The notes under the pieces were generated by a model, which did no database searches, was not told the origin of the DNA, and saw only the letters and a program-made list of their open reading frames with translations. Both the position numbers and the translations under genes were made by a program. A DNA stretch of 64,000 nucleotides from Eledone cirrhosa. Taxonomy: Eukaryota. Positions 906-63,794 of this stretch are shown here, in pieces. The stretch spans positions 8,990,001 to 9,054,000 of the forward strand of contig OZ024752.1 in NCBI GenBank assembly GCA_964016885.1, in the 5' to 3' direction. How positions within the stretch are numbered: the first letter of the stretch is position 1; every line of letters starts with the position of its first letter.

Positions 906-2300
906 GTGAGATCCTGCAGTAAGTACTTCCAAAGCAGGAAAGTAAACGTCGTGCATGCTCTCATAGGCATGGATATTCAACAGCATTTGACCAGATTTCT
1001 ATGGGATCCTTTTTAGCCTCAAAAAGGGATTTGAAGATACTATCTTCCCCCAACTCAAATAACTCGACTTGTAGTTCCGTAGGACCCTCGGATATATCTA
1101 CTAAATGTGGTTCAAATACCAGTTTCATAGCAGGTGTGTATTTGTCAAAATCTGAAAATCTTTCAGTATATTCTTCTATTAAAGAATCCAAGACACCTAC
1201 ATATCCATCAAATATTTTATTTTCACATTTCTGCTCATTCAACATTTTTGCTAGCTCCAGGAAGTGTTCTGCAGATATATCCGAGCGAGAGAGTAATGTT
1301 TTGAAAAATGTTAATTTTTTTTTTTGAAACGCTTGGATCTTTTGCCACATTTCATATATATGCTTTGTTTTACCTTGCAAGCAAATATTTAAATTATTTT
1401 GTTTTGTCATGATATCAGACAAAAATGCAATGTTTCTGCAAAATGCTTCATCTGATAGATCACAAAGTTTTCCTTGTTCGTGATAAAAGTTTAAAATTTG
1501 TCGTCGTAAAGTTAAAACTTTTATCAAAACCTCTCCTGTTGATAGCCAGCGAACCTTGCAGTAGATCAACACTGTATGTTTCCTCGTCTAAAGTTAGCAT
1601 CTGCCTAAATTCACGATGATGCATTGCATTAACGCAAATATGGTTGACAATCGCAATTGCTCTATCCAGAGCGTCTTGCAAAATGCAGTGAAATGATATA
1701 AATTTTTTCAAGTTTAAGTTTTCATAAAGCAATGAATCCTTTCATAGAGGGTGCGCCATCGGTGCAGACACTGACTAAATTACTGACATTTAATTGTAAT
1801 CGATGACATACCTCTCTGAAGTTTTCGAAAATGTCAACTCCGCGAGTTCTTCCAGTTAGCATACCCAGCGCAAGAAGTTCTTCGTAACACTGAACATCTT
1901 TAGTTACAGCACGAATAAAATATAAAACTTGCGACAAGTCAGTTTTATCAGTGCTTTCATCCAAAGCAATTGAAAAATAAACAATCTTCATTTTGTATTA
2001 TTGTACAAAGTTGCTCTGTTACATTTTGAGCTAATTCGTGCTGTCGATCTGTTATAGTTCTTCTTGAAAGAGGCAATTGTTTGTATTTATCAACTTTTTC
2101 TGGATCTAACATACCCACTGCTTCAACAATACATTCTTTAATTATTTCTACGTCACTAAATGGTTTGCCTCTTTTTCCAAGTATATGTGCTATTTTGTAA
2201 GTAACATCAACGGCAGTGGATTATTCTTCACAAAAGGACTAAAAGACGTCTGTTGATAATGCCTTTCATTTTTCAATTTTTGAAGTGCAGCTTGTCGAGA
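905..2300 (-). pseudogene. hAT transposase fragment (GTF2IRD2/EPM2AIP1/Spin-like), frameshifted, no TIRs seen
   Basis: GKPFSDVEIIKEC, LPLSRRTI, YFSIALDESTD, VCTDGAPSM, FHCIL, VRWLSTG motifs. Confidence 0.9.
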
Positions 2301-2305
2301 TTCAC

Positions 2306-2968
2306 CTTCATAGCTTACAGATTATGCACTTCCTATCTATACAGAGAGGTCTTTGAAAAGGGTATGTATTACTAATTACTGTTTTTATAGAGGTACCTGG
2401 TCTTTCCACTATCTTTATATTTAGTTTAAGTTTATCTAGGGCCCTTCTAAATTTGTAAGCTAGTTCACCTCTAGGGGTTGTATTGATGAACATTACACTC
2501 TGGTATTTATTGCTATCATACTATCAGTTTATTTTATTAACCTTATTCCTAGTTCTTTCTATTCTATTCCAAAATTTCCCCCTATACAAGGGGCAGGTCC
2601 CATTTGTATCATTATCTACCATTTTTTTCCATTTGGTTCTGGCTCCTCTATATACTCTGATTTTATCTCTGATTGTAACCAGAGAACTGCATATGGTGGA
2701 TGAAGTGTTGTATGTGTCTCTCTAGTTCTTTGGGGTTGCACATGCGGGACACGTTTCTCATCACCCGTACTAAATCCGTAATCAGTATGTTGATTTTGGT
2801 GTGATCCGAAACAGCTGAGTTTCGGTAGATCAGGTATTTGGAAGTCATGGGTTTGGCATAATGGGAATGCAGGATTTGTTTTTTGTTATTAATGGTTTCT
2901 AACCAGAGCTCTGTCTAGTACAGGTAATCGATGGTAGGTCTTCTTGTCTGGGATGGGAATGGACTTAA
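2306..2968 (-). pseudogene. Penelope-like fragment, copy 2 (duplicate of 243-905)
   Basis: Identical ORFs 2308-2493 and 2663-2848. Confidence 0.75.
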
Positions 2969-3169
2969 GTGAGATCCTGCAGTAAGTACTTCCAAAGCAG
3001 GAAAGTAAACGTCGTGCATGCTCTCATAGGCATGGATATTCAACAGCATTTGACCAGATTTCTATGAGATCCTTTTTAGCCTCAAAAAGGGATTTGAAGA
3101 TACTATCTTCCTCCAACTCAAATAACTCAACTTGTAGTTCCGTAGGAGCCTCGGATATATCTACTAAAT

Positions 3170-4222: not shown

Positions 4223-5395
4223 GGCATACGTCAAAACGGCCGGTCACAAAAGTGAAACTAACTTTTGACAGTTACATACGTCATTACTTTCAATTTGGAT
4301 TGTGAAAATAACTACATAGTTATACGTTTGTTGCATATAAAATATAAATTGACGTACTTATGAAAATCCTTATTACACCCTATAAATAGCTGAAATACAG
4401 TTGATCATCTCGCCAAACTTGTTGGCACCAACTCTCTGCCGCCAAAGAAATTCAGCTAAATATGAGGGGAATAAAGCATCGCTTGTCCCATGCTGGCGAT
4501 GAAGCTTTTTCTTTGCACGGCTCCAAGTGTTCTCTATGAGTTGTGTGTGCACATTAGGGTCTTCTGGATCTACAAAGTTCCGTTGGTGCACAACAACATC
4601 ATGGAGGTAAATGCCACCTTGAATGTGTTCAATATCCGAATAGGAAGCCCAACCATCGGACATGATGTGGCTTCCTGGCAAAATCCATTGCTGTATGATG
4701 GGGACAAGAGTCTCACGGCTTCGATCTGGGACTTTGATGAGGCAGCAGCATCCAGAATGGCGTTCTACAGCGCCGAAGACCCAGTGGCCTTGTCTCCACT
4801 GGCCACGATGATACATTCTATGAAAGTATTTTGATTTGTCGATCTCAACAATGATCGACGAACCATTCTCATCGAATCCTCCAAGCTGTTGAGCCATATT
4901 TGATGTGACACTGTATTACAATCCAGCCTTTCGGTGCTTCGTTTTAAAAAAAAAAAAATTTCCCAGCCCTTCTGACGCCAATCTGTCTTTCTGACCCCAA
5001 GCTGCCCCTCTGACCCAAATCCCTTATCATTCTCTGTCCTTCTTATGACTCTACCTTAATTTCTTTGGCAACAGAGAGTTGGTGCCAACAAGTTTGGCGA
5101 GATGATCAACTGTATTTCAGCTATTTATAGGGTGTAATAAGGATTTTCAATATTTATTTATTTCAACACACAATGTCGTTATTTAAAAAAAAATTTTCTG
5201 TACACACAATACACAAAAAAAGAATAAAAAAAAATTATCACGTACACGCAATACTAATCAACAAAATTCACTTTCACTATTGAGACCTGTTGTAAAAAAA
5301 CAAACAAATTCACAATCCAAATTGAAAGTAATGACGTATGTAACTGTCGTCAAAAATTAGTTTCACGTTTGCGACCGGCCGTTTTGACGTATGCC
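4223..5395 (-). mobile_element. Merlin (IS1016/ISXO2-like) DNA transposon, internally deleted
   Basis: ~80-bp TIRs starting GGCATACGTCAAAACGGCCGG; 9-bp TSD GATTGACTG at 4214-4222 and 5396-5404. Confidence 0.92.
4373..4897 (-). CDS. Truncated Merlin transposase, catalytic domain only (174 aa)
   Basis: Near-identical to the C-terminus of 20413-21387; WVFGAVER, SDGWASY, HTQLIENTW; EIDES changed to EIDKS. Confidence 0.8.
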   Translation of the reverse strand: MAQQLGGFDENGSSIIVEIDKSKYFHRMYHRGQWRQGHWVFGAVERHSGCCCLIKVPDRSRETLVPIIQQWILPGSHIMSDGWASYSDIEHIQGGIYLHDVVVHQRNFVDPEDPNVHTQLIENTWSRAKKKLHRQHGTSDALFPSYLAEFLWRQRVGANKFGEMINCISAIYRV

Positions 5396-5469
5396 GATTG
5401 ACTGTGCATAACCAGATTCAGAAAGGGCCTTATTATAATATGCTGCATGGGCATTAAATATCTGCTTTT

Positions 5470-5893
5470 TAGTTCTGTCACATTGGTAATTCAATCCGAA
5501 TTCACTAAATTCAGATAGATTAAGATCTCCCTCTCAGAGTTGTCTCGTTATATTCCTCGAATTACCCCAATCTAGCCAATATCTGCTATTATCCAAGTAT
5601 GTACCCATAAACGGTCCTGATGCCAGACTGATACAGCCATCTTGAATGACGTAACTGTCGGCCCCTTGGTGGTGATCTTGTGAAAACTTTCCGTTGTTTA
5701 GTAATGTACCGTGTTGAATACAACTACCACCCCATTCAGTATTCGTTAATGGTTTTCTGAGTAGCGAATGATTTGTCCATTCATGTACGAACGTGTCTCC
5801 CTGTCGCAACTCCTTTACTTCGTGCAGCCCTCTCCAATCGTGTAAGAATCTCATCTTAATCTCGCATTTATTCTCCACGAATGTTCCTCCGTA
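5470..5893 (-). pseudogene. Probable endogenous parvoviral capsid fragment (middle region)
   Basis: VKELRQGDTFVHEWTN resembles the parvoviral VP LRTGD motif; lies next to NS1 and VP fragments. Confidence 0.5.
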
Positions 5894-5894
5894 G

Positions 5895-6186
5895 GTATTA
5901 AGAAAAAGAGAAGAAATGGTTTGTATGAGCACCTCTTCCACCAGCGAAGTCAACTTATATTCTATTCTATTTCAATATATATATAGACAGCGACAGCCAA
6001 AGACAACTGTTTGTTCTTTACCAAACAGCCCACAAGGCGCCTTGTGGGCTGTTTAGTAAAGAACAAACAGTTGTCTTTGGCTGTCGCTGTCTATATATAT
6101 ATATATTGAAATAGAATAGAATATAAGTTGACTTCGCTGGTGGAAGAGGTGCTCATACAAACCATTTCTTCTCTTTTTCTTAATAC
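5895..6186. repeat. Near-perfect ~290-bp palindrome with no spacer
   Basis: Arms are reverse complements centred on AAGGCGCCTT (~6034-6043); they differ by one mismatch and (TA)n length. Confidence 0.95.
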
Positions 6187-6212
6187 TAGTGCTTTTCTTC
6201 AAACTTCTTCAC

Positions 6213-6355
6213 CACAATCGATGGCAGGTCCAATATGGCGTCTATTTTATGTATATATATATTGTAACCTGATACACTGGTTCTTATGAATTTAATATAT
6301 TCTTATGTAATTTGATACTCACTTAGCCGCCATTTTGTTGTGACCATCGATTGTG
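6213..6355. mobile_element. Small MITE-like element
   Basis: Terminal inverted repeat CACAATCGATGG/CCATCGATTGTG with subterminal ATGGCG/CGCCAT; no clear TSD. Confidence 0.4.
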
Positions 6356-6448
6356 TAGTAGGTTATGAAATAATGTAGGTCATGCAAATAAAAAAAAATT
6401 TTTTGCTGATTGAAAAATTTATTTTATCCAATCAAAATACAGAGATTA

Positions 6449-7095
6449 TTATTCATAACGGCATTTAAAGTCTGAATGAGGAGGTGAATCACCATTCTCA
6501 AATGGATCATCACTATTGAAAAATTCATGACAATCGTCTTTTAAATGTTCAATTTCTTCTTCTGTGTAAGTCTTCTCTTCTTTTTCTGTTGTATTCGTAT
6601 TTATTTTCTTGTTATTATCTTCTTCTGTGTCTGTATTATCAAGTTTCCTTTTTCTGTCTGTAGTGAAATCTATATCGTAGTTCGTATACATAGTTGATTC
6701 TGGTACTTCGAGCATTTTAGTAGAAAGATATGTATTTTGTTCATAGTCTACTATGTACGTCTTCCAAATAATCAACCACATTAAAGGATTCAGTTCTTTT
6801 TGGCCCCATGACTTTAAGGCATCCATTGCTTTATGTGTTTCGTATATGAACATTCTAGCTCTCAATGCTGTCTCATCCTGCATTACGCGGTCCCATGGAT
6901 CGCTATTTCCTGTACTAATACAGGGTGTTCTGTGCATGATACGTTCGGCCTGGTGCTTTATGTTCACGTAGGTTTCGGTGCCTTCCAGAATACATTTGGC
7001 TTCAATATTAGCCGTAGTAAACCACATCTCGTCTGAAAATCATAGTCTTGTCTACGCAAGTCCCGAACGTGAAGTTATCGCTTCCTTGACACCTC
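6449..7095 (-). pseudogene. Endogenous parvoviral NS1/Rep, C-terminal half of the SF3 helicase plus acidic tail
   Basis: DNFTFGTCVDKTMIF(frameshift)DEMW (cf. AAV Rep NFPFNDCVDKMVIWWEE), KCILEG, VNIKHQ, TPCISTGN, ALRARM; AATAAA downstream of the stop. Confidence 0.85.
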
Positions 7096-7117
7096 ATCCT
7101 TGATTACCCATGTAGAA

Positions 7118-7744
7118 TTATTCATAGTTTGGTAAAAGCAACTGGTCTATTTTCGTTGGATAGATCATTTGAAATCCATCATTTGGAATATGTGACAGTC
7201 CACGTAGATTACTATATCCTATATACTTTCCTCTGTCCACATATACTTGGAAATACGGCAATGGATTACTGATAAATTGATCCTCTCCTTTTGCAACGAT
7301 CCATTCTGAACAGATTATATTTGATATTTTGAATCCAGCTTTTTGGACTCTATATTTCGTGGCCAGTTTTAGATTTGTTTCCCAGTCTATCGGTTTCACC
7401 CATGACGTCAGATAATACGGTACCAAATAATCTGCAGAAAAACAGTATCCCCTTGCCATTTTATTATCCAGACTAACTGGTGGATTTTTGTCTCCCTTTG
7501 TTTGTCTCAATGCAAAGAATTTGCCTGTCGCTTCATTCATGTCCGTACTCTTTACACAGTTTTGGAACTTCCTAGTGAAAACGACAGTTCGTCGAAAGGG
7601 TCCTGTAGGCTCGGGTATGTCTGCAGCAGCACCCTGGGCTTGGCCTCACCATCCACCTCCTCCATCCGTTCTCACAGTTTCTTGATCCGTTTCCATGCCA
7701 GCCATATTAACAGCCCCACCACCGCCAGCAGCTACTTTTGGCAT
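7118..7744 (-). pseudogene. Endogenous parvoviral capsid (VP) N-terminal fragment with an internal stop
   Basis: Gly-rich N-terminus MPKVAAGGGG..DGGGGW*G, then TVVFTRKF, VPYYLTSWVKPIDW, YRVQKAGFKISN, PYFQVYVD in one frame. Confidence 0.7.
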
Positions 7745-7749
7745 CCGTT

Positions 7750-9250
7750 TTAGTGTGTGTGTGGATGCTATTCTTATTACTAGGTTTCCTCATGGACATA
7801 TTGTGCGAGATAATGTTGTAGCTATGTGTTTTCGTAGGTAGGAACTCAATCTCTATATTATGGCCAGATCTAGCTAATGCTTGATTATAATATTGCGAGT
7901 TTTTGCTAAATATGTTTGCGTCATAGGATAGATTAGAGATTCTATTGGATACCCCCTTAGAGATAGAGTCTAATATTGATCTAGGGTGGTTAGACTTGGT
8001 ATCTACGTAAATGAGTTTTTCGTTAGGCTTATGGAAAGGTGTATATATCTTTGAGTCTAGGTATAGTCTGGCGTCTAGGAAGTTAACGTTTTTAGTGTTT
8101 TTGTCCATGGTGATACTAAGGTTATAGTTTTTGAATGTCCTATGCAATAGTTTTCTAGTTCTTTCTATATTGAATTTTTTATATTCTATAAGTAGAAGTG
8201 CATCGTCGCGGTACAAACCACCGTTGAGGTATGGAAGGTCCTTATGGATTTCATTAAGTAAGTATAGGCCGACCAAATCAGTGACCTGCGCCGAGTCACT
8301 AGACCCCATGGTTATATCGAAGTTGTTGTGCGTATCCTTGCGGGTCCATAATTGGTCTTCAAAGGTGATTATGGTTTTACGGGCCGCAAGGATGACATCA
8401 ATCTGGGTTCTAGTCAGGTCGCTATTGTTCATGGCCATGATTAGTGCCTTATTTAATAGGATAGGGGAAATAGAGGTGTAGTATGAATTGATATCAAATT
8501 GAATACATTTTTTGTCCTTGTTATTCTTGATATCTTTGAACGATTCAATAACTTCACCCATATGTGTTTAATCTGTGGGATGATTTTATCTAAAATTTTC
8601 TTACTGATAATGCCAATGTCAGACTTGGAAGGGCAGATAAGTCTAATTGAGGGGTTGCTGATGAAGTCCTCCTTATGGTCCTTCAGAGAGAATCTAGCGG
8701 GGTTTGGGGTATATGGTTGTGTATGCCTCTGAAGTCCTAGTTTAGACACTATATTATATCCCTCTAAATTAATATCCTCTAAGTTTTTCATAGTAGTTTT
8801 CTTGTAGCTTTTATGTAGTTCATTATATATAAACTTTCTATAAGTATTATAATCTAGGCTGTATACGTTATTAGTTTTATCCGCATGTACAATAATTTTT
8901 TTACTAGTTTTGAATTCATTAATACAGGTGTTAAGTTTATTTAAGAAGGTGTTGTTTCTATTACGGTGCTTATTGTATTTAATGTTCTTAACTAGTTTTT
9001 TTAGGTCATTTTCAAAGGAGTTTAGTAGTGTGTTATGAGGGGGGCTTCTAAAGGTTTTAAAGCCGAAGGAGTCAAATTTGTTAGTATTATTAACATTGTT
9101 AGATTTGTTTTTATCATAATGGAATGTCCTCCATCTCACTCTATTGATAAAGGAATTTACACTGTCGATCAACAATTTCTCATATGTGTTCTTGGATGGT
9201 ATTGGTATGTTCTTGGTTGACATGGAGAGTTGGTCTTTGATTAGCATACT
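7750..9250 (-). pseudogene. Penelope-like element RT, frameshifted, 3'-truncated before the GIY-YIG domain
   Basis: KNIPIPS..FINRVRW, ADKT, LKDHK, IRLICPSKS, QFDINSYY, FDITMGSSDSAQ, GGLYRDD, NFLD, SNHP. Confidence 0.92.
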
Positions 9251-9475
9251 GGTAATTTATTGTATGTCAGCTCAACAGTATGGAGCAGTTAATAGTATTA
9301 AGGATACTATTTATGGTTATGCAAATACAAAAACCTTTTGTAGTTATATATATTTTTACAAACCCTAAATAGTGATAGGCAGTAATTTAAATAGCTCAAT
9401 GTACTAACATCAGATGTTTTACAGAGCAGTTATATATAAGTTATAAGAATCAAAGTTCTGATCAAATCATTTATA

Positions 9476-9522: not shown

Positions 9523-10205
9523 ATTTATTAATGGATGATCACATATATGACCTCCTTTTCACCCCAAGAGACATACAGATACATATGCAAACATTGTTGC
9601 TTGGTAGTTCGACAACCATTATAATATTTAGTGTGGCAGTAGTATACATTTAAAGGTTACATTCATATCAAAAGTTAAAGTTAAAATACAACATGAAATT
9701 AATGCGATAGGATAGTCATAAGCAGTTATTGAGTGCAATAGTTACACGTGTGGCACGCACGTGTGTCTTATTTTGTATAATGCTATAATGCGGCAGAGTG
9801 TTACATGCAATAGAAGCACTTAAACGGGTGATCAAGAGTGTCAAGGGGGTTGAACTGGTAATGAATCCTTTATACGAATGTTATAGAAACCTGTGCGTGG
9901 AGAAATATTATAAATATTAAATATTGGAAATGTGTAGCAAAGCGATGATATGGATGATACGTACAGCACCATTTTCTCAGTCTGGGGAGCATAATATCCA
10001 GATTATATGCCCCTCACATAATCTACGACGATTCAATATTGGGCGTTTGACGATTCTGTTAGAGTATCGTAGTTTGTTGGTCTTTAGCTCAATATAGCAG
10101 GTTGTTAAGTTGCGAGAATCAACATCGAATCTGGGTCAGTGCATGTCATATTGGATGTCAAAAGTTAACTATATATATATATATATATAAATATGGTTCA
10201 ATAAT

Positions 10206-10490
10206 ATGGAAAATAAAAATAATCATAAGTTCATTCAAGTGGACATAGCTAGTTACTATTCCTCAATAACTCCTAACCTACCAAATAAGGTGCTATCCTA
10301 TGCATATAAACACACGGATCTATCTAGTGATGAGATAAATATCATTTTAACGGCAAGGCGAACATTAATAGATTTTAATAATGATCTTTGGACTAGATCG
10401 GATAGGCAAAAAACTTTGACATTACTATGGTCTCGTCTGATTCGGCGCAAGTTACCGATCTTGTGGGAATTTTCATCCTTAATCCTTTAG
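10206..10490 (+). pseudogene. PLE RT fragment in + orientation (exception to the strand bias), next to (TA)n
   Basis: FIQVDIASYYSSI..ILTARRT..FNNDLWTR; DSAQVTDLVG follows in a shifted frame. Confidence 0.85.
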
Positions 10491-12800: not shown

Positions 12801-13289
12801 GTTATAGTTGCTGTAAACAAATATTCTCGTACATAATTAGGTATAGTCCAGATCCATGATAGGTGGTCAGAGATGAAATGTATGTTTATTTTTGTTGTAG
12901 CATAAATAATGTTGGTTAACTTGTAAGGTTGACGTTACACATAAAAATGAGGTTACAAAAGGGAATGCGCCAAAAAGGAGTGGAATGCTTTCAATCATTT
13001 CCACATAATATGGCCTAGTATCCAAAGGCCAGGCGAGAATCAGAGACTCAAATACATCAGAAGTCTCTACAAAAAAGCGACGAAACTAGGCAGGTACATT
13101 CCAGAATGTCAGAGGATAAAGTTTCCCAGTAGCATGGCGAATTATTTTTTGCCAACCACCACGATACGTACTCATACTTGGCATCGACGATATGAACAAA
13201 ACGTTTTCAGATTGGTGACAAATAGAACATAGGCCAAAACCAGAAGTATCACCTAAACCATCAACAAGCAAAGGACCGATAATACTTAT

Positions 13290-20256: not shown

Positions 20257-21864
20257 GGCATAGGTAAAATATAACGTTCGAGAAAGTGAAACTAATTTTT
20301 ATGACAAGTGAATGTGTTTGTTTTTTAGTATTGCGTGTGTGATTATTTTTTCTTTTTCTTTTTTTGTGTATTGTGTGTACGGAAAATTAGACGTACCTTA
20401 TCAACATCCTTATTACACCCTATAAATAGCTGAAATACAGTTGATCATCTCGCCAAACTTGTTGGCACCAACTCTCTGCCGCCAAAGAAATTCAGCTAAA
20501 TACGAGGGGAATAAATCGTCGCTTGTCCCATGTTGTCGACGGAGCTTTTTCTTCGCACGGCTCCAAGTGTTCTCTATGAGTTGTGTGTGCACATTAGGGT
20601 CTTCTGGATCTACAAAGTTCCGTTGGTGCACAACAACATCATGGAGGTAAATGCCACCTTGAATTTCCTCAATATCAGAATAGGAAGCCCAACCATCGGA
20701 CATGATGTGGCTTCCTGGCAAAATCCATTGCTGTATGATGGGGACAAGAGTCTCACGGCTTCGATCTGGGACTTCGATGAGGCAGCAGCGTCCAGAATGG
20801 CGTTCTACAGCGCCGAAGACCCAGTGGCCTTGTCTCCACTGGCCACGATGATACTTTCTATGAAAGTATTTTGATTCGTCGATCTCAACAATGATCGACG
20901 AACCATTCTCATCGAATCCTCCAAGCTGTTGAGGATTCGCCTCCAAATACTGCTTACAGATTTCTCTAAGGAAATTGCACCAGTCTATAATTGTCGGCTT
21001 GCTAAGTCCTGTTTCTCTCATCATCTCAGTTTGGGCCTGATCGTTGCACCACATATACATAATGCCAATAAGTTGTTCGAGTCGAAGATGGCTTCGATAA
21101 AATATAGAGTTCCGTCGAACCGATTGACAAAATGTGTCGCGGCAGCATCGCCATCTCCATTTATCTATCCCCTCAGAATATCTTCTCAATGTGCACGCCT
21201 CATTGCAGAGAGGACAAATCACACTGTTCGCCAACAAACGCCGACTCGCAAACCACTCTAACATACATAATGTGTCACCGTGTATCGCCGGACACAGCGT
21301 ATATATTGTTTCGAAGCGCTCAACAATAGCATTAGTATCCAAAATATCTTCAACTAACTTAACGCGACCAACCACTTGTCCAGCCATTGATGTGATACTG
21401 TATTAGAATCCAGCCCTTCGGTGCTTCGTTTAAAAAAAAAAAAATTTCCCAGCCCTTCTGACGCCTATCTGCCTTTCTGACCCGAAGCTGCCCCTCTGAC
21501 CCAAATCCCTTATCATTCTCTGTCCTTCTTATGACCCGGCCTTAATTTGTTTATAGTTGGTGCCAACTTTGGCAAGATATTACAAAAACATCTAAACGAT
21601 GATGATGACACAAACACATATATATATATACAAACACACATATATATATACATACAGACACACATATACACACCCACACATATATATATATATAAGAGAA
21701 AATAATCACACACGCAATACTAATTAACACCATATCACTATAGAGACCTGTTGTAAATAAACAAAGAGTGTATCGTAAATTTCATTGTAAAAAAAAATAA
21801 CAAACACATTCACTTGTCAGAAAATCCACTTTCAGTTTCGCGAACGTTATAATTAACCTATGCC
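20257..21864 (-). mobile_element. Full-length Merlin DNA transposon
   Basis: Imperfect TIRs starting GGCATAGGT; 9-bp TSD GTGCTAGTG at 20248-20256 and 21865-21873. Confidence 0.93.
20413..21387 (-). CDS. Merlin/ISXO2-type DDE transposase, apparently intact (324 aa)
   Basis: Zn ribbon CPLC..WRC..C..SVR, HTH region, VEIDES, WVFGAVER, SDGWASY, HTQLIENTW, YLAEFLWR. Confidence 0.92.
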   Translation of the reverse strand: MAGQVVGRVKLVEDILDTNAIVERFETIYTLCPAIHGDTLCMLEWFASRRLLANSVICPLCNEACTLRRYSEGIDKWRWRCCRDTFCQSVRRNSIFYRSHLRLEQLIGIMYMWCNDQAQTEMMRETGLSKPTIIDWCNFLREICKQYLEANPQQLGGFDENGSSIIVEIDESKYFHRKYHRGQWRQGHWVFGAVERHSGRCCLIEVPDRSRETLVPIIQQWILPGSHIMSDGWASYSDIEEIQGGIYLHDVVVHQRNFVDPEDPNVHTQLIENTWSRAKKKLRRQHGTSDDLFPSYLAEFLWRQRVGANKFGEMINCISAIYRV

Positions 21865-26048: not shown

Positions 26049-26416
26049 GGAAAAGACAAAAAATATCAACGGCTAGAACAAGCCAAAATTCAGAAGAATA
26101 GAGAAATAGAAATATAGAAATTTAAATGTTACATTATAAGATATAATATGCAGGTAATATAAAAACAGGATAAGGAGGCAAGGTCTAGGATGTTGCGACA
26201 TATTAAGATTTCAGGTAACTAAGAAAGGGGTCTTAATTACTAATGGGTAAACATTTATAATATTTATAACACACCCGATAGTATGTAAGGAAGGATATTT
26301 CGGAAAATTATCCAGGAAAGACGTGTCAAACCTATAGGGTACATTGGTACATAAAAACTATAGGGCAAGAGAGCAAGCAAACATTAAAATAGCCACGTTA
26401 AAAGTACAATATACAA

Positions 26417-29400
26417 GCCCTTAAAAGAACTGTTGAGCATGGACAGACGAAAGCACAAGTTGAAAGGACGAAGCAAGGCGAGATGTAAACTATAAAATGA
26501 CTTTGACCAGATTTATGCAGGCGTGATGAATGCGCCTGTTGCAATTTCGGTTGAGCTGCCTGTGAATTGCGTGACAAAAAGTCTAACTGGGCAATGAAGA
26601 TAACCGTAATGTGTGAACTGAATGGCCGTAAGCATGCTGCCTAAAAGTAACAGTTTGCTCCACAGCATATGACTTGAGCGAATGCATGTGGTAAAAAAAA
26701 TACCGAGGCATTCTCGAGCTATTGAGTGAATGTGTACGTGAAAAAAGAAGGCCAGTGTTTTGAGGATGCGATTTGTGAAATGCGTGATCAAAGAGAAAAC
26801 ATTTTGTCGTGTAAGAGTTAGAGGGACACAAATATCTATTGCTCAGTGTATGAACTAAAAGGTGAAACAAACGTGGTTTTGTAGTGTGCATGAAAAACAG
26901 GATATGTACACGCCTTGTATGTATATAAAAATTATGGCAATTACACAATCAATGTTACAAAACAAGAAAAATACAAATTTTGCAAAACAAGAGAGAGAAG
27001 AAAAAAAATGTTATACACAATGTTTGTTCTTAAATAGAGTTTGTAATAAATAATGTTCTTCGTGACATGAGCACATGGTCACTAAAAATTGCAATTGTTC
27101 AAGCAGAAAGTTCATTGTATTTGAAACTGGAAATAGTAAACACAAGAAAAATGGAAATGTTTTGCACGAAGACTGATTAATAAACTCACTTGAGGTTAAC
27201 GGTAATTCACATATTGTGCCAACTTTGCGGGCCAATGGACGTGTCGTCCGCTTCTCGTGACTGGAGATGAAACAGGTGGCTCGCTGGGACAGCAATCTGT
27301 TGGAGTTTCTGGTGTAGAGACTGTAACAGTATCCATGATGGCTTTTTTTAATCTGTCCACGCTGACAGAATTCTGTTTACCGTCTAGATCGAGAATAAAA
27401 TATTTCGGATATTTTTTTAGAACACGATAAGGGCCAGAATATGGAGGTCGAAGATGAGCTGAGATGGTGTCGTTTCGAACGAAAACGTGTGTCCAATCAT
27501 CAATGTCTGAAGGTACGTGTGTGGCCGTGTTCTGTTAACGGGTGCTTGCATGAGCAAGCTGAGACATATATTGTCGAAGACGGTGTACGTATGATCCTGG
27601 GTCTGGAACATACTGAGGAGAGATGGGAGCAACCATCTGACCAGGTAGAACCAGGGTGGTGCTGTACACTAATTCTGCAGGTGTGTGTCCGAATTCCTCT
27701 TTAACGGTGGATCGAATGCCCAAAAGGATGAGTGGTAGGTATTCAAACCAGTGGGTCTTGTCTGGATATGCTTTTATTGCAGCTTTCAATTGACGATGGA
27801 ATCTTTCCACGAGACCTTTAGCTTGCGGGTGATAAGCTGTCGTGCGGATGTGTTTACATCCTAACAGGCGAGTCAATTCCCTGAAGAGGTGGAAGTCAAA
27901 TTGGCGTCCTCTGTCCGTTATCTTCGCTGGGGCGCCATAACGTGATACCCAGTGTAAAACCAAAGTTTTAGCGACTGTTTCCACTGAGGTATCATTTATG
28001 GGAAAAGCCTCAGGCCAACGAGAAAATCGATCTATGCAAGTGAGCAAGTGTGTGTAGTTCTGTGATGGTGGTAGAGGTCCAACGATGTCGGTATGCACAT
28101 GATAAAAACATGCATCAGGTTGCGCGAATGTGCCGAGTGGAGTTTTGATGTGTCTGTGGACTTTAGCTTTCTGGCAGGCAATGCAGCTCCTGGACCAGTC
28201 GCGCACGTCCTTGTTAATGTTAGTCCACACAAAACAAGCAGAGATGAGTTTCTGTGTAGCTCGGATTCCCGGGTGAGACAAGCAGTGTAAAGCAGAAAAA
28301 ACTTGTCGACAATGCATCTGTGGTACGTACGGTCGTTCATGACCGGTAGAAAGGTCGCACCAAATTTGTCCCGGAGAAGAAGGAATGGGAACTTGCTGAA
28401 ACTTGAGGGATGGCGAATCTCGGAGCTTGATAAACTCTTGGTCAGCTGCGATCTGTTGAAGGTCGATGCCTGAATGCACATGTATTGCGTTCAGCTGGAT
28501 TCGGGACAGGGCGTCGGCTGCTACGTTGTCTGATCCCCTGATATGCCGAATATCAGTTAGTATTGGGAGACAAAATCCAGGTGTCGGAGTTCTCTCGGTG
28601 AATGTCAATCAGGTTTGGTACGGAACGCATAAATTAATGGTTTATGGTCCGTGTAGATCACGAAATCTGATCCTTCGAGCATGTGCCGAAAATGTTTAAC
28701 CGAAAGATAGGTTGCCAAGAGTTCGCGGCCAAAGGTACTGTATTTCGTTTCTGCCGGTTGCAACCGCTTAGAAAAGAAGGATAAGGGTTGCCACACGCCG
28801 TCGACATGTTGTAGAACGCCTCCAACCCCCGTGTCTGATGCGTCCACCTGGGGAAAACGAGCAATATTTCTTTCAGGCGGTTAAATGATGTAAATTCTTC
28901 CTCGTTTAGAGTGATCTCTTCGTTTTTGCGAGTCCGGTTACGAAGAAGGTCCGTGAGGAGTCTGGCTTTGTCGGAACTATGCGGGATGAACCGCCTATAA
29001 AAATTCACCAGACCGAGGAATTCACGCAGTTTTCGAAGTGATGTAGGTGCAGGAAAACTGCGGATAGCTTCTACTTTCTCGGGAAGTGGGCGAATGCCGT
29101 CTTTATCGATGATGCGCCCGAGAAAGGACAGTGAAGGAACGCCGAGAAAGCACTTGCTGGGGTTGATGATGATACCGTACTCAGCCTAACGTCGGAAAAG
29201 GAGATCTAACTGCTTCTCGTGTTCATTCTCGGAGGCACTTGCTACCAGTACGTCGTCAATATACGCGTATACGAAGGGTAGATCGCGTAACACGGTGTCG
29301 ATAAACTGCTGAAAAGTTTATGCAGCGTTGCGCAGATCGAACGGCATTCGCAGGAATTCGAATAACCGAATGGTGTTGTGATTGCGGTCTTCGGAATGTC

Positions 29401-31483
29401 TGCAGGCTCCATAGGTATCTGGTTATATGCACGCACCAAATCTACCTTGGAAAAGATACGTGCGCTTTGCAGGTGAGGTACAGGGTAATTATCGGGCACT
29501 GTAGAATTGTTAAGTGCACGATAATCCCCACATGGTCGCCAATCATTCTCGGTTTTTTTTGGAACAAGGTGTAGGGGTGCAGACCAGTTGCTGGAGGAAG
29601 GGCGAATGATTCCGAGGTCCAGCATGTGTTGGAACTCCTGCTTGGCGATTCTCAATCGTCTGGAGGCAGTCTCCTTGGTCGGGCGGCTGTGGGTGTTCCC
29701 TTTGTCTCGATGTGGTGCATGACACTATTCTTAATAGGTCCATCCTTAAATACCGGGCGAGTGATGTCTGGATATTTCTGGAGAATGCCGTTGTACCGCG
29801 AAGGCTCTGACTGGCAAATTACAGGGCTCACTGTGGATTGCGTGGTAAATATACCTCTCACAGTGAGGTTTGTGGTGGTGTCAATAAGCCTCCGGTTCTT
29901 CATATCTACCAGAAGGTTGAAGTGGTGGAGAAAATCGGCCCCTAGGATCGGGGTCGGCAGGTCTGCCACGATGAACACCCATTGAAAACGCCGCCTCAGG
30001 CCTAAATTGAGGGTCAGAGACTTCTCCCCGAAAGTCGGAATTGACGATTGGTTCACTGCCTGCAGAAAGGACGGGGTTGGGTGTCTTTTGCCCGAGATTA
30101 GTGAAACAGGAATAACACTAACCTGGGCTCCTGTATCCACGAGGTAACGGATGCCTGTCGCCTGGTCGTTAATAAAAAATAGACGACTTTTCAGTACCAG
30201 GGGTGAACGGCGTCGCTAGGCCCTGGTCTGCCCGTTTCCATGGGTGGTATTCTGGAAAGAGCACGGGGCCCTACACTTAGATGCCTGAGCGCCGAATTCC
30301 TTGTGATACCAGCAGAGGTTGCCAGACACACGATTTTGACTGGGACTTCTTGATCTTTGACGGTGAAAGGGTCTGAACCGACTGTTGCTGTGCCGCCGGT
30401 GTGTTTGCAAGGTCAGGCTTTCTAATTGGTTTGAGAGGGCTTTGATTTGACCAGCCTGCTCTCTGATCATAGCCCGCAGCTCTGAAATCTCGGAGGTGGA
30501 GTCCGAGGACGCTACGTAAGGGTTCGTCCGACGATCTACCTGTGTTACTGAGGCAAAAGGGATTGATACCTCAGCGATCTTATCTGCGACACTTGTCAGT
30601 TCCTCCGGGGTTGCTGACTCGTTAGTCGACGCCAGAATGCCTTGCATCGATATGGGCTAGCGGTGTATGAACAACCGTTTCAGCAGATCTTCTGAAAGTG
30701 GCTGATCCTCCATCAGCTGTCTCATCTTTTGCAATAGTTGGGATGGTTTTCTGTCCCCCAATTCTTCTGCAGGCACGAGTTGGTTGAGTCGTCTCTGCTG
30801 TGACGCGGTCGTCCGCTTGACCAATTCCTTGCGGAATGATTCATATGACACCGTGCCTGGCGGTGCCATGACGAGGTACCTCACCTCAGCCAAAACTTCT
30901 GGCGGGACAGATCCAATGATGTAGGTGAGCTTTGCGGAATTGCTCTTAATTCTGTTCGCGGTGAATTGCGCTTCTATGTGAGCGAACCACAGAGTCGGGT
31001 CGTGAGACCAAAATGCGGTGACTTTCAATGTTAACGCCGCTTGTGTGGTTGGTATCGCGGCTTCTGTCGTTTTTGACATGTCCATGTTGATATTTTCTTA
31101 GGTGCTGTCTGGTTGCGCGTTCGACTCGCGTTCGGGTCACCAATTGTAGCGACGTGGTTAGTCAGTCTAGTCACTACTTCTGATCAGATCCAAGAATAGC
31201 CCTTAGAAGGACTCTTATCGCACACGGTCTGATCAGATCTGAAGATAGCCCTTAAAAGGACTGTTGTCGCATATAGCCCTTAAAAGAACTGTTGAGGATG
31301 GACAGACGAAAGCACAAGTTGAAAGGACGAAGCAAGGCGAGATGTAAATTCGATCAGCTATTTATTTTCACATGAAGTGACGATACGAGGTACAAAGCGT
31401 GGCAGAGGCGAGGAACACCGATACGCGAGTTGACTCTGCCAAATGTCGACTGGCGAAGTGTTGGGAACCACTCTATTTATACA
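26417..31483 (-). mobile_element. Ty3/Gypsy LTR retrotransposon, near complete, with frameshifts and stops
   Basis: LTR ~31145-31483 with a partial copy at 26417-26489; PBS TGGTGACCCG at ~31134-31143; gag 31085-30216, PR DTGA, RT ([15 protein letters not shown]), RNase H (DASD, RELLA, TDHKPL), integrase (HPG..C..C, DIVGPL, TDRG, VERFHR). Confidence 0.95.
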
Positions 31484-61074: not shown

Positions 61075-61260
61075 AGTTGGATTGGCAGTATCGGTAGAGG
61101 GTCGGACGCTATGCTTTCCAGCATAGTTACGTCCCTTTACGATCTGAGTTCAAATCCCGCCGAGGTTGACTTTGCCTTTCATCCTTACGGGGTCGATAAA
61201 ATAAAGTACCAGTAATGCACTGGATAATTGCTGGCCTTGTGCCTAAAGTAGAAACAATTA
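61075..61260 (+). mobile_element. tRNA-derived SINE, cephalopod-like
   Basis: TGGCAGTATCGGTAG A box, GAGTTCAAATCC B box, GACTTTGCCTTTCATCCTT.CGGGGTCGATAAAATAAAGTACCAG central domain. Confidence 0.8.
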
Positions 61261-62165: not shown

Positions 62166-62247
62166 GTGTATTAACATGTACCATAAACAATATATACAAA
62201 TTGATTCATACTGGGTTACAGAATAAATGAGGAAATATAAATTATAT

Positions 62248-63207
62248 AACTAGACATGAAAAATGCGCAAGCTCAAAAGTGCCACAGAATGTTATAATAA
62301 ACCTTCAAAAGTGTGGGACTAGAGTTGTTGCTAAAAAAATATTGTAATCATTATATATCGTACATTCTGTGGCATCCTTTATAAAAATAGCTTAAACCAA
62401 CGAAGCCTTTATTTTTACGCTATTTCACTTAGTTAATTCTTAGAGTGTAACATATAAAAATAAATACATCTATGTTTAATGTAATAACAGCTATAAATAA
62501 TTACGTAATATTATTATCATATACTCATAGTAACAAAATAATTGTGTTGAAAATTAATATGATGCTTATATGAACGATCAAATCTATAATGATAATTTCT
62601 TAAATATACTAATAGTAAAATAATTTAGTTATCTATTGTTACATTTTCATAGAACTATAATATTAACAATCGTATTGCATTATCAAATTTTTATCACTAC
62701 AAACTTTCATATTGGAATTACCTTAAGCCACTTATTATTACTTCGCTTTCGTACTTTTACAGCTGTAGATATTGCGCTGTATCTTATATCTAATATCAAT
62801 ATCTCATGGTAATTTGCATGCAGTGTAAAATAGGTTTATTAATAACTTTAATATGAAATGTATTATACAGGGCTGCGGAGTCGGCCAAAAATTGACTGGC
62901 TCCAACTCAGGATCCGATACTCCATTATTTCCTAAATTTCAGCTCCGCAGCTCTGTTATTATATAAATTAATTTATTTTATAGTTGTAAATCATATTTTT
63001 ATATGTTACACTCTAAGAATTAACTAAGTGAAATAGCGTAAAAATAAAGGCTTTGTTGGTTTAAGCTATTTTTATAAAGGATGCCACAGAATGTACGATA
63101 TATAATGATTACAATATTTTTTAGCAACAACTCTAGTCCCACAATTTTGAAGGTTTATTATAACATTCTGTGGCACTTTTGAGCTTGCGCATTTTTCATG
63201 TCTAGTT
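62248..63207. mobile_element. Non-autonomous element with ~215-bp terminal inverted repeats (MITE/foldback)
   Basis: 62248-~62462 is the near-perfect reverse complement of ~62994-63207. Confidence 0.85.
62868..62955. mobile_element. Tiny hAT-type MITE nested in the foldback element
   Basis: TIR CAGGGCTGCGGAG/CTCCGCAGCTCTG; 8-bp flanks GTATTATA/TTATTATA. Confidence 0.65.
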
Positions 63208-63794
63208 TAATATTTTTTTAAGGCAACGCTTGTAATAACTCTAGTTAAACAGGATATATATTAATAATAAATTATCGTTGTAATGTAATTAGATTATGTA
63301 ATTGTTATTATAAATTATCTTATAAATATTAGTGTAAGATGTATAAAAATATTTTCAGACTTTTAATATAAACAACTACAAAAAACAATCAATATTAAAT
63401 CAATATATTATACATAATAGAAAACATAAAATAAACAATACAAAAACAAAATATTTACATACAATTGCAATTATCAGTGTATATACATTTTCTTTATATT
63501 CCCTGAGCAAATTAATAAGATTTGTTTTTATTGTACATAATTTGATGACTTGTTGGAGTGTATTAAAAGATAGCAACAATTTGTGATTAAATTGTTATCT
63601 TAAGCAACTCACTTTTTAATAGTTGTTGGCTGAGCGAAATTGTAAAAGCCTATGAGCAAATATAAAAAAAAATACACAAACAACATTTCCTTGTGTTATT
63701 ACAACATTAGATAAAATAATTGAGCAATGTCGTTATATTTTGCTCTTATTGCACATTAATAGTGTTTCTATTTTTCGGCACAAATCCATTACGG

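Follow-up and report, generated by a model that had tools for sequence, protein, structure and literature searches.

An endogenous parvovirus, broken and out of genomic order, lies at positions 5470-7744 of the window, by which we mean the whole 64,000-nt stretch of Eledone cirrhosa DNA that we analysed (contig OZ024752.1). It is joined to host DNA, has decayed reading frames and is present at low copy number; hence, it is an endogenous viral element. The explanation that we favour, with about even confidence, is that a block carrying the end of NS1 and a palindrome splits a capsid gene, that the viral sequence was captured as DNA, and that antisense reading of the locus would feed piRNA production.

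Layout of the locus

Read along the minus strand, the locus had been described in the initial annotation as a Penelope-like element (PLE) reverse transcriptase (RT), the N-terminal piece of a capsid gene (VP), the C-terminal half of NS1, a palindrome, a third piece and PLE sequence again. We find all of these, in that order, and we agree that the order is not colinear with a genome in which NS precedes VP. The features are as follows.

7745..9256, minus: PLE RT, frameshifted and cut after the thumb, with Hydra-clade-type motifs (open reading frames, RWR and DKT motifs, high copy number)
7101..7744, minus: apparent N-terminal piece of a parvoviral capsid (VP), with a Gly-rich start and predicted jelly-roll strands (ESM, motif)
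6449..7100, minus: C-terminal half of a parvoviral NS1, SF3 helicase from just past Walker A to the stop (58% to P0004)
6187..6448, minus: AT-rich non-coding DNA after NS1 (stops in three plus frames, fold z -4.55)
5895..6186, no strand: near-perfect palindrome of 292 nt, centre 6038/6039 (fold and arm alignment)
5471..5894, minus: probable middle section of the capsid gene represented at 7101..7744, with one in-frame stop near 5535 (motif, composition)
5405..5470, minus: short PLE RT-thumb fragment, of another family than the PLE at 7745..9256 (protein match)
4223..5395, minus: Merlin (IS1595-type) DNA transposon (PF12762, E 9e-22)
12951..13285 (outer limits approximate; core 12975-13148), plus: second parvoviral piece, NS1 N-terminal nuclease region (tblastn, profile)

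The reading of this layout that we find most plausible is of a single capsid gene split by the end of NS1, a poly(A) signal, 3' non-coding DNA and the palindrome. In its simplest form, this reading needs two joints, with an interrupting block of 1.2 kb.

Contigs from sequencing run X1 match the window with 0 differences at 5434-5795, 6157-7574 and 7564-7795, at a depth of 9-12; they span the virus-host joint at either end as well as the junction of VP with NS1, and depth in the PLE flank is 10^3-10^4. Since X1 may be the assembly's own sample, this support is not independent. We considered whether the viral stretch could be chimeric, with reads of a co-sequenced virus wrongly assembled into host DNA. 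Fold-back artefacts are known to arise at palindromes, none of the listed X1 contigs spans the one found here, and the runs that carry the locus come from one sample; however, an exact match across both host joints and the VP/NS1 joint, together with stops and a frameshift in the reading frames, makes a chimera very improbable. Three RAD runs, from other samples, yielded 0 reads over 6470-7739 in every case, and are uninformative because the likely enzyme, apparently SphI, has no site in 5200-9000 and hence none in the viral part.

The NS1 fragment and its relatives

The NS1 fragment matches P0004, a full-length Parvo_NS1 protein, at 58% over 105 aa (E 8e-34; one of 22 longer candidates). P0004 in turn matches PF01057 (Parvo_NS1) with an E value of 4e-16 and AAV2 Rep with an E value of 1e-8, although the fragment queried alone matched nothing in Pfam or the PDB. 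Thus, where the initial annotation had left room for a non-parvoviral SF3 helicase, the helicase matches are parvoviral, and on this evidence the NS1 fragment is parvoviral. Homology begins at 7100, which corresponds to residue 359 of P0004 and lies past Walker A, so that this motif falls outside the fragment, whose stop is at 6449. Of the SF3 motifs that had been reported, Walker B is present but broken by a frameshift near 7040, and B', C and the arginine finger lie downstream.

P0004 has 1,109 relatives at E <=0.001. Among the best 150 of these 1,109, an identity of 40% or more is reached by 44, none of which aligns over more than 400 residues, a pattern expected if they are fragmented endogenous copies or come from short contigs. 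A quick tree of 115 helicase-region rows, built without classified references and with rows of <130 positions excluded save that of the window NS1 itself (P0001), places the window NS1 in a long-branch clade with 11 relatives (SH-aLRT 98). Only one of 20 representatives that we looked up had a name, and it was placed outside this clade. A Euprymna scolopes EST from the supplement of PMC5013282 is identical to the window NS1 at 42 of 73 residues, counted by eye; hence, the two likely belong to the same NS1 lineage, one associated with cephalopods. The NS1 matches, the tree and the contigs that bridge the host joints all support the earlier view that the element derives from a divergent invertebrate parvovirus. 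Scans of contigs for parvoviral loci found none. Two contig matches were discarded as chance: one (L001) covers only 23 residues on a 40-kb contig, and the other (L002) has phage-like genes alongside.

Two capsid pieces

The first capsid piece (7744-7101) is interrupted by stops in frame at about 7646 and 7120 and looks like the N-terminal half of a capsid protein. Its ESM features reach 0.94-0.95 to Cossaviricota capsid clusters, several of them with parvoviral capsid families, and its ESM recognition score of 2049 is under the mark for strong evidence. It matched nothing in Pfam or the PDB, and a protein search among longer proteins supported 0 of 242 candidates. The ESM features of the second capsid piece (5894-5471) reach 0.87, below 0.9, to unrelated, lipocalin-like families; this piece likewise had no Pfam or PDB match, and no candidate was found among proteins of similar length. 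Across the viral pieces, the Pfam and PDB searches returned only endoglucanase matches, in one of them, at E 0.07 or worse. Single-sequence structural models of the two capsid pieces have pLDDT values of 28 and 30, too low for fold comparison.

We compared three AAV2 capsid peptides, taken from PMC5415329, with 82,544 six-frame positions in the window. The peptide from VP 310-318 matches the first piece at 7342, a match equalled at 6 of the 82,544 positions, and that from VP 403-411 matches the second piece at 5809, with 13 of 82,544 positions equally good; each corresponds to about p 0.02, for motifs picked after sequence inspection. The peptide from VP 370-378 gave no ranking match (99 of 82,544 positions equally good). 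Because the two motifs occur in the order that they have in AAV2, we consider it fairly probable that the two pieces are successive parts of one capsid gene. Base make-up is alike in both, with a G content of 0.25 and 0.24, respectively, as compared with 0.13-0.16 in the PLEs, and a contig depth of about 10-20 over the second piece indicates that it is not a repeat. Hence, of the earlier claim that a second VP piece joins PLE sequence, the position and the PLE joint stand, while its likeness to a capsid is a matter of the motif. The AAV-like spacing of motifs in the first piece fits a report in PMC5013282 that a VP transcript from Octopus vulgaris (JR446908) is closest to AAV.

A separate X1 contig of 744 nt, with a depth of 2.7, differs from 7564-7731 at 22 of 168 letters (87%) and then diverges from the window; it may come from another capsid copy akin to this one, or from a related virus.

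Non-coding block and palindrome

NS1 is followed by AATAAA at 6423 on the minus strand, with no poly(A) tail, and a second AATAAA lies at 6387 on the plus strand, about 30 nt away. The opposing signal raised the possibility of an ambisense layout, which we rejected since all three plus frames leading to it are closed. An imperfect inverted repeat occupies about 6213-6357 (fold z -4.55; 0 of 200 shuffles as good). In the adjoining palindrome, a single substitution and a 4-nt (TA)n indel are the only differences between the arms over 144 paired positions, and the palindrome's fold has a z of -26, with 0 of 100 shuffles as good. One read-derived contig stops at 6157, 30 nt inside an arm, as would be expected if the arm occurs twice.

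The palindrome is likely to be a viral terminal hairpin or a replication-dimer junction, but it could be a host-side fold-back. The latter belongs to a broader alternative that we regard as unlikely, in which the viral pieces are neutral debris left among dead repeats, host fold-back produced the palindrome after insertion, and no antiviral piRNA is made. The near identity of the arms beside several breaks in the viral frames favours this alternative, as does the decay of the frames in general; against it, a second structured repeat adjoins the palindrome, as at viral ends.

Since the block passes AATAAA without an A-tail, its template was not a polyadenylated mRNA, and if the palindrome is a terminus or a dimer junction, the source would be viral DNA. 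The distance from the NS1 stop to the palindrome, about 260 nt, is too short for VP. This would fit a defective genome that had lost VP, although a third joint, not seen here, would then be needed; a bipartite genome, like that of the Acheta domesticus segmented densovirus (AdSDV), or a genome with VP first, would fit directly. P0004 is encoded on a contig of 2363 nt, and its cluster mates on contigs of 3703 and 5245 nt, long enough for a normal genome.

A candidate piRNA cluster

Outside a tandem array, 20 of the 22 transposon blocks in the window, representing six kinds of element, lie on the minus strand. The binomial probability of this bias is 1e-4 if the blocks are independent, for queries drawn from minus-strand frames. 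As a control, none of 96 plus-strand frames of at least 60 aa matches Pfam, as compared with 11 of 36 hand-picked minus-strand frames. Dense fragments of transposons facing one way are the anatomy of a unistrand cluster, and transposon-rich piRNA clusters exist in molluscs (PMC6128900). We conclude from this anatomy that the locus is probably a unistrand piRNA cluster. The strand bias, improbable by chance over six kinds of element, also argues against neutral debris.

The initial annotation had described the viral pieces as co-oriented with the transposon fragments. This holds within 5470-7744 and for the 20 of 22 blocks, but not for a PLE piece at 10194-10489, which is on the plus strand against the main bias, nor for the second NS1 piece (12975-13148), also on the plus strand. 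The latter covers the HUH nuclease region, a domain that is absent from the 5470-7744 element, and lies tail-to-tail with a PLE fragment. By tblastn it matches P0022 at 36% (E 9e-9) and P0004 at 28% (E 0.008), and its profile matches have E values of 4e-10 and 0.0012 (1,515 window frames). Because it is closer to P0022 than to P0004, it probably comes from another parvovirus lineage. Its orientation indicates that viral DNA is not invariably filtered into one direction at this locus, and a viral piece on the other strand is a further point in favour of neutral debris.

According to the explanation that we favour, the source virus would have belonged to a cephalopod-associated lineage, and 7744-7101 and 5894-5471 would be successive parts of its capsid gene. 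Taking the palindrome to be a terminal hairpin or the junction of a replication dimer, we would trace the element to rearranged or defective viral DNA, which may have been joined into the chromosome by end-joining and not by way of a spliced or polyadenylated mRNA. Plus-strand transcription of a unistrand piRNA cluster would then render the viral and transposon pieces antisense, and we would expect no protein product from the locus. A bolder version, which we consider quite unlikely, is that this cephalopod-associated parvovirus lineage itself has a non-standard genome, in which NS1 is the gene nearest the terminal hairpin, with VP ahead of it or on another segment, that this terminus is preserved here, and that the host retains pieces of at least two parvoviruses in a single piRNA cluster as a heritable memory against viruses.

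The rest of the window holds several other repeats. The tandem array, at about 33170-57740 on the minus strand, consists of 24 units of about 1043 bp each, mostly 98-100% alike, and each unit contains a fragment of an ankyrin-repeat gene fused to a fragment of a PLE GIY-YIG-type endonuclease. A PLE/hAT stretch is directly duplicated at 1-1106 and 2064-3169 (99.6% over 1106 nt). A near full-length but frameshifted gypsy-type element, with short terminal repeats 98.6% alike, lies at about 26416-31348 on the minus strand, and a MITE-like element with long terminal inverted repeats (arms of about 220 nt, 96-99%) at 62239-63216. A SINE-like stretch at 61100-61250 presumably resembles an octopus SINE. 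Rfam searches of 1-34000 and ARAGORN on the whole window gave no matches.

PLE flanks and the route of capture

The upstream PLE RT, from 9256 to about 7745, is a high-copy repeat. Other genomic copies of it align as far as at least 7749 and the capsid-like frame opens at 7744, so the direct RT/VP joint that had been proposed is borne out. Hydra-clade PLEs are described in PMC8557442 as having RWK and DKT motifs and a C-terminal endonuclease; we found RW[KR] in 4 of 5 N-terminal PLE frames and DK[TG] in 3 of 5, and on these motifs the flanks appear to be Hydra-clade elements. The flanking PLEs matched nothing in Pfam or the PDB, so the assignment of the upstream PLE rests on motifs.

On the downstream side, three PLE thumbs from within the window match 5470-5405 at the protein level, and this PLE resumes at about 4222-4130, past Merlin. 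Other genomic copies of the downstream PLE repeat leave loose ends at 5397 and 5450, where they continue without interruption. Merlin (4223-5395) is a later insertion into this PLE, with terminal inverted repeats and a 9-bp duplication (4214-4222/5396-5404). The Merlin copy is internally deleted and contains an inverted duplication at 5052-5149, and a related Merlin lies at about 20257-21864 (96% over 550 nt).

With PLE sequence on both sides, the initial annotation had suggested capture by template switching, and we find this possible but doubtful. A PLE RT would have jumped from its own RNA to viral RNA or single-stranded DNA and back, and the chimeric copy would have been inserted. The flanking PLEs share one orientation, the capsid-like frame has its first codon at the upstream joint, and three of the four virus-host joints abut PLE. 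By hand arithmetic, the chance of the last observation is 0.05-0.14, taking PLEs as 25% of bases (their approximate share of the window outside the tandem array) or as 8 of 22 blocks. In the array, an ankyrin fragment fused to part of a PLE endonuclease points the same way, and copy-choice with LTR elements has been proposed for mosquito viral elements (10.1101/127498). However, the A-tail that would be expected after AATAAA is missing, and the block includes what is probably untranscribed terminal DNA. A comparison of the two flanking PLEs at the DNA level gave no significant match, and the RT thumb is present in each; thus, the two are different elements, overlapping in RT position, and not one element opened by the virus. 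Hence, neither mark of PLE-mediated capture, a single PLE copy around the virus or an A-tail, was found. The second viral piece is oriented opposite to its PLE neighbour, and a literature search on PLE template switching found three general reviews only. We therefore rank capture at the DNA level ahead of capture by RT, while noting that the abutment of three of four virus-host joints on PLE leans towards a role for RT.

Comparison with known parvoviral elements

Scrambled parvoviral elements in piRNA-like clusters are already in print, as are cephalopod parvoviral sequences. Our literature search found no paper devoted to cephalopod parvoviral elements; the rows of interest in PMC5013282 (François et al. 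2016) appear in its supplement only, and others may be similarly hidden. Besides the O. vulgaris transcript, these rows comprise Euprymna scolopes DW277466/DW283133, Sepia officinalis FO193416 (an NS EST) and Octopus bimaculoides KOF81493; an O. bimaculoides copy is listed as endogenous and adjacent to a transposable element, and that paper places its mollusc sequences outside all named genera. As listed there, the cephalopod sequences are short NS or VP fragments, without termini, gene order or cluster context, and two NS sequences from O. bimaculoides look by eye like lineages other than that of the window. The element described here thus adds a capsid and a probable terminal sequence to a lineage for which short ESTs from squid and cuttlefish have been the main source.

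AdSDV, the one bipartite parvovirus named in the literature that we examined (PMC10267136), has an NS cassette followed by a terminal hairpin, as 7100-5895 suggests for the source of this element. Its termini are T-shaped and 208-220 nt long, whereas the palindrome in the window is linear and 292 nt long. If NS1 truly adjoins a genome end, the significance of the element would be greater.

The general picture has been described in shrimp, psyllid and mosquitoes. In Penaeus monodon, endogenous elements of IHHNV likewise consist of out-of-order parvoviral fragments among retrotransposon pieces in piRNA-like clusters (PMC9357335). As reported there, they run in mixed directions, are 98-99% like IHHNV records and have host direct repeats at their edges, whereas the main block in the window runs in one direction and has no known cognate virus. 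A densovirus element of Diaphorina citri (ENS, EITR; PMC7527727) similarly combines NS with terminal-hairpin sequence and sits in a piRNA cluster. In the psyllid, antisense piRNAs were measured, and those from the element proved dispensable for antiviral piRNA production; the window locus, a candidate cluster, also includes capsid pieces. In Aedes, capture of viral sequences by LTR elements on the same strand has been described (10.1101/127498). With two parvoviral captures in a candidate cephalopod piRNA cluster, antiviral piRNA memory becomes testable in cephalopods.
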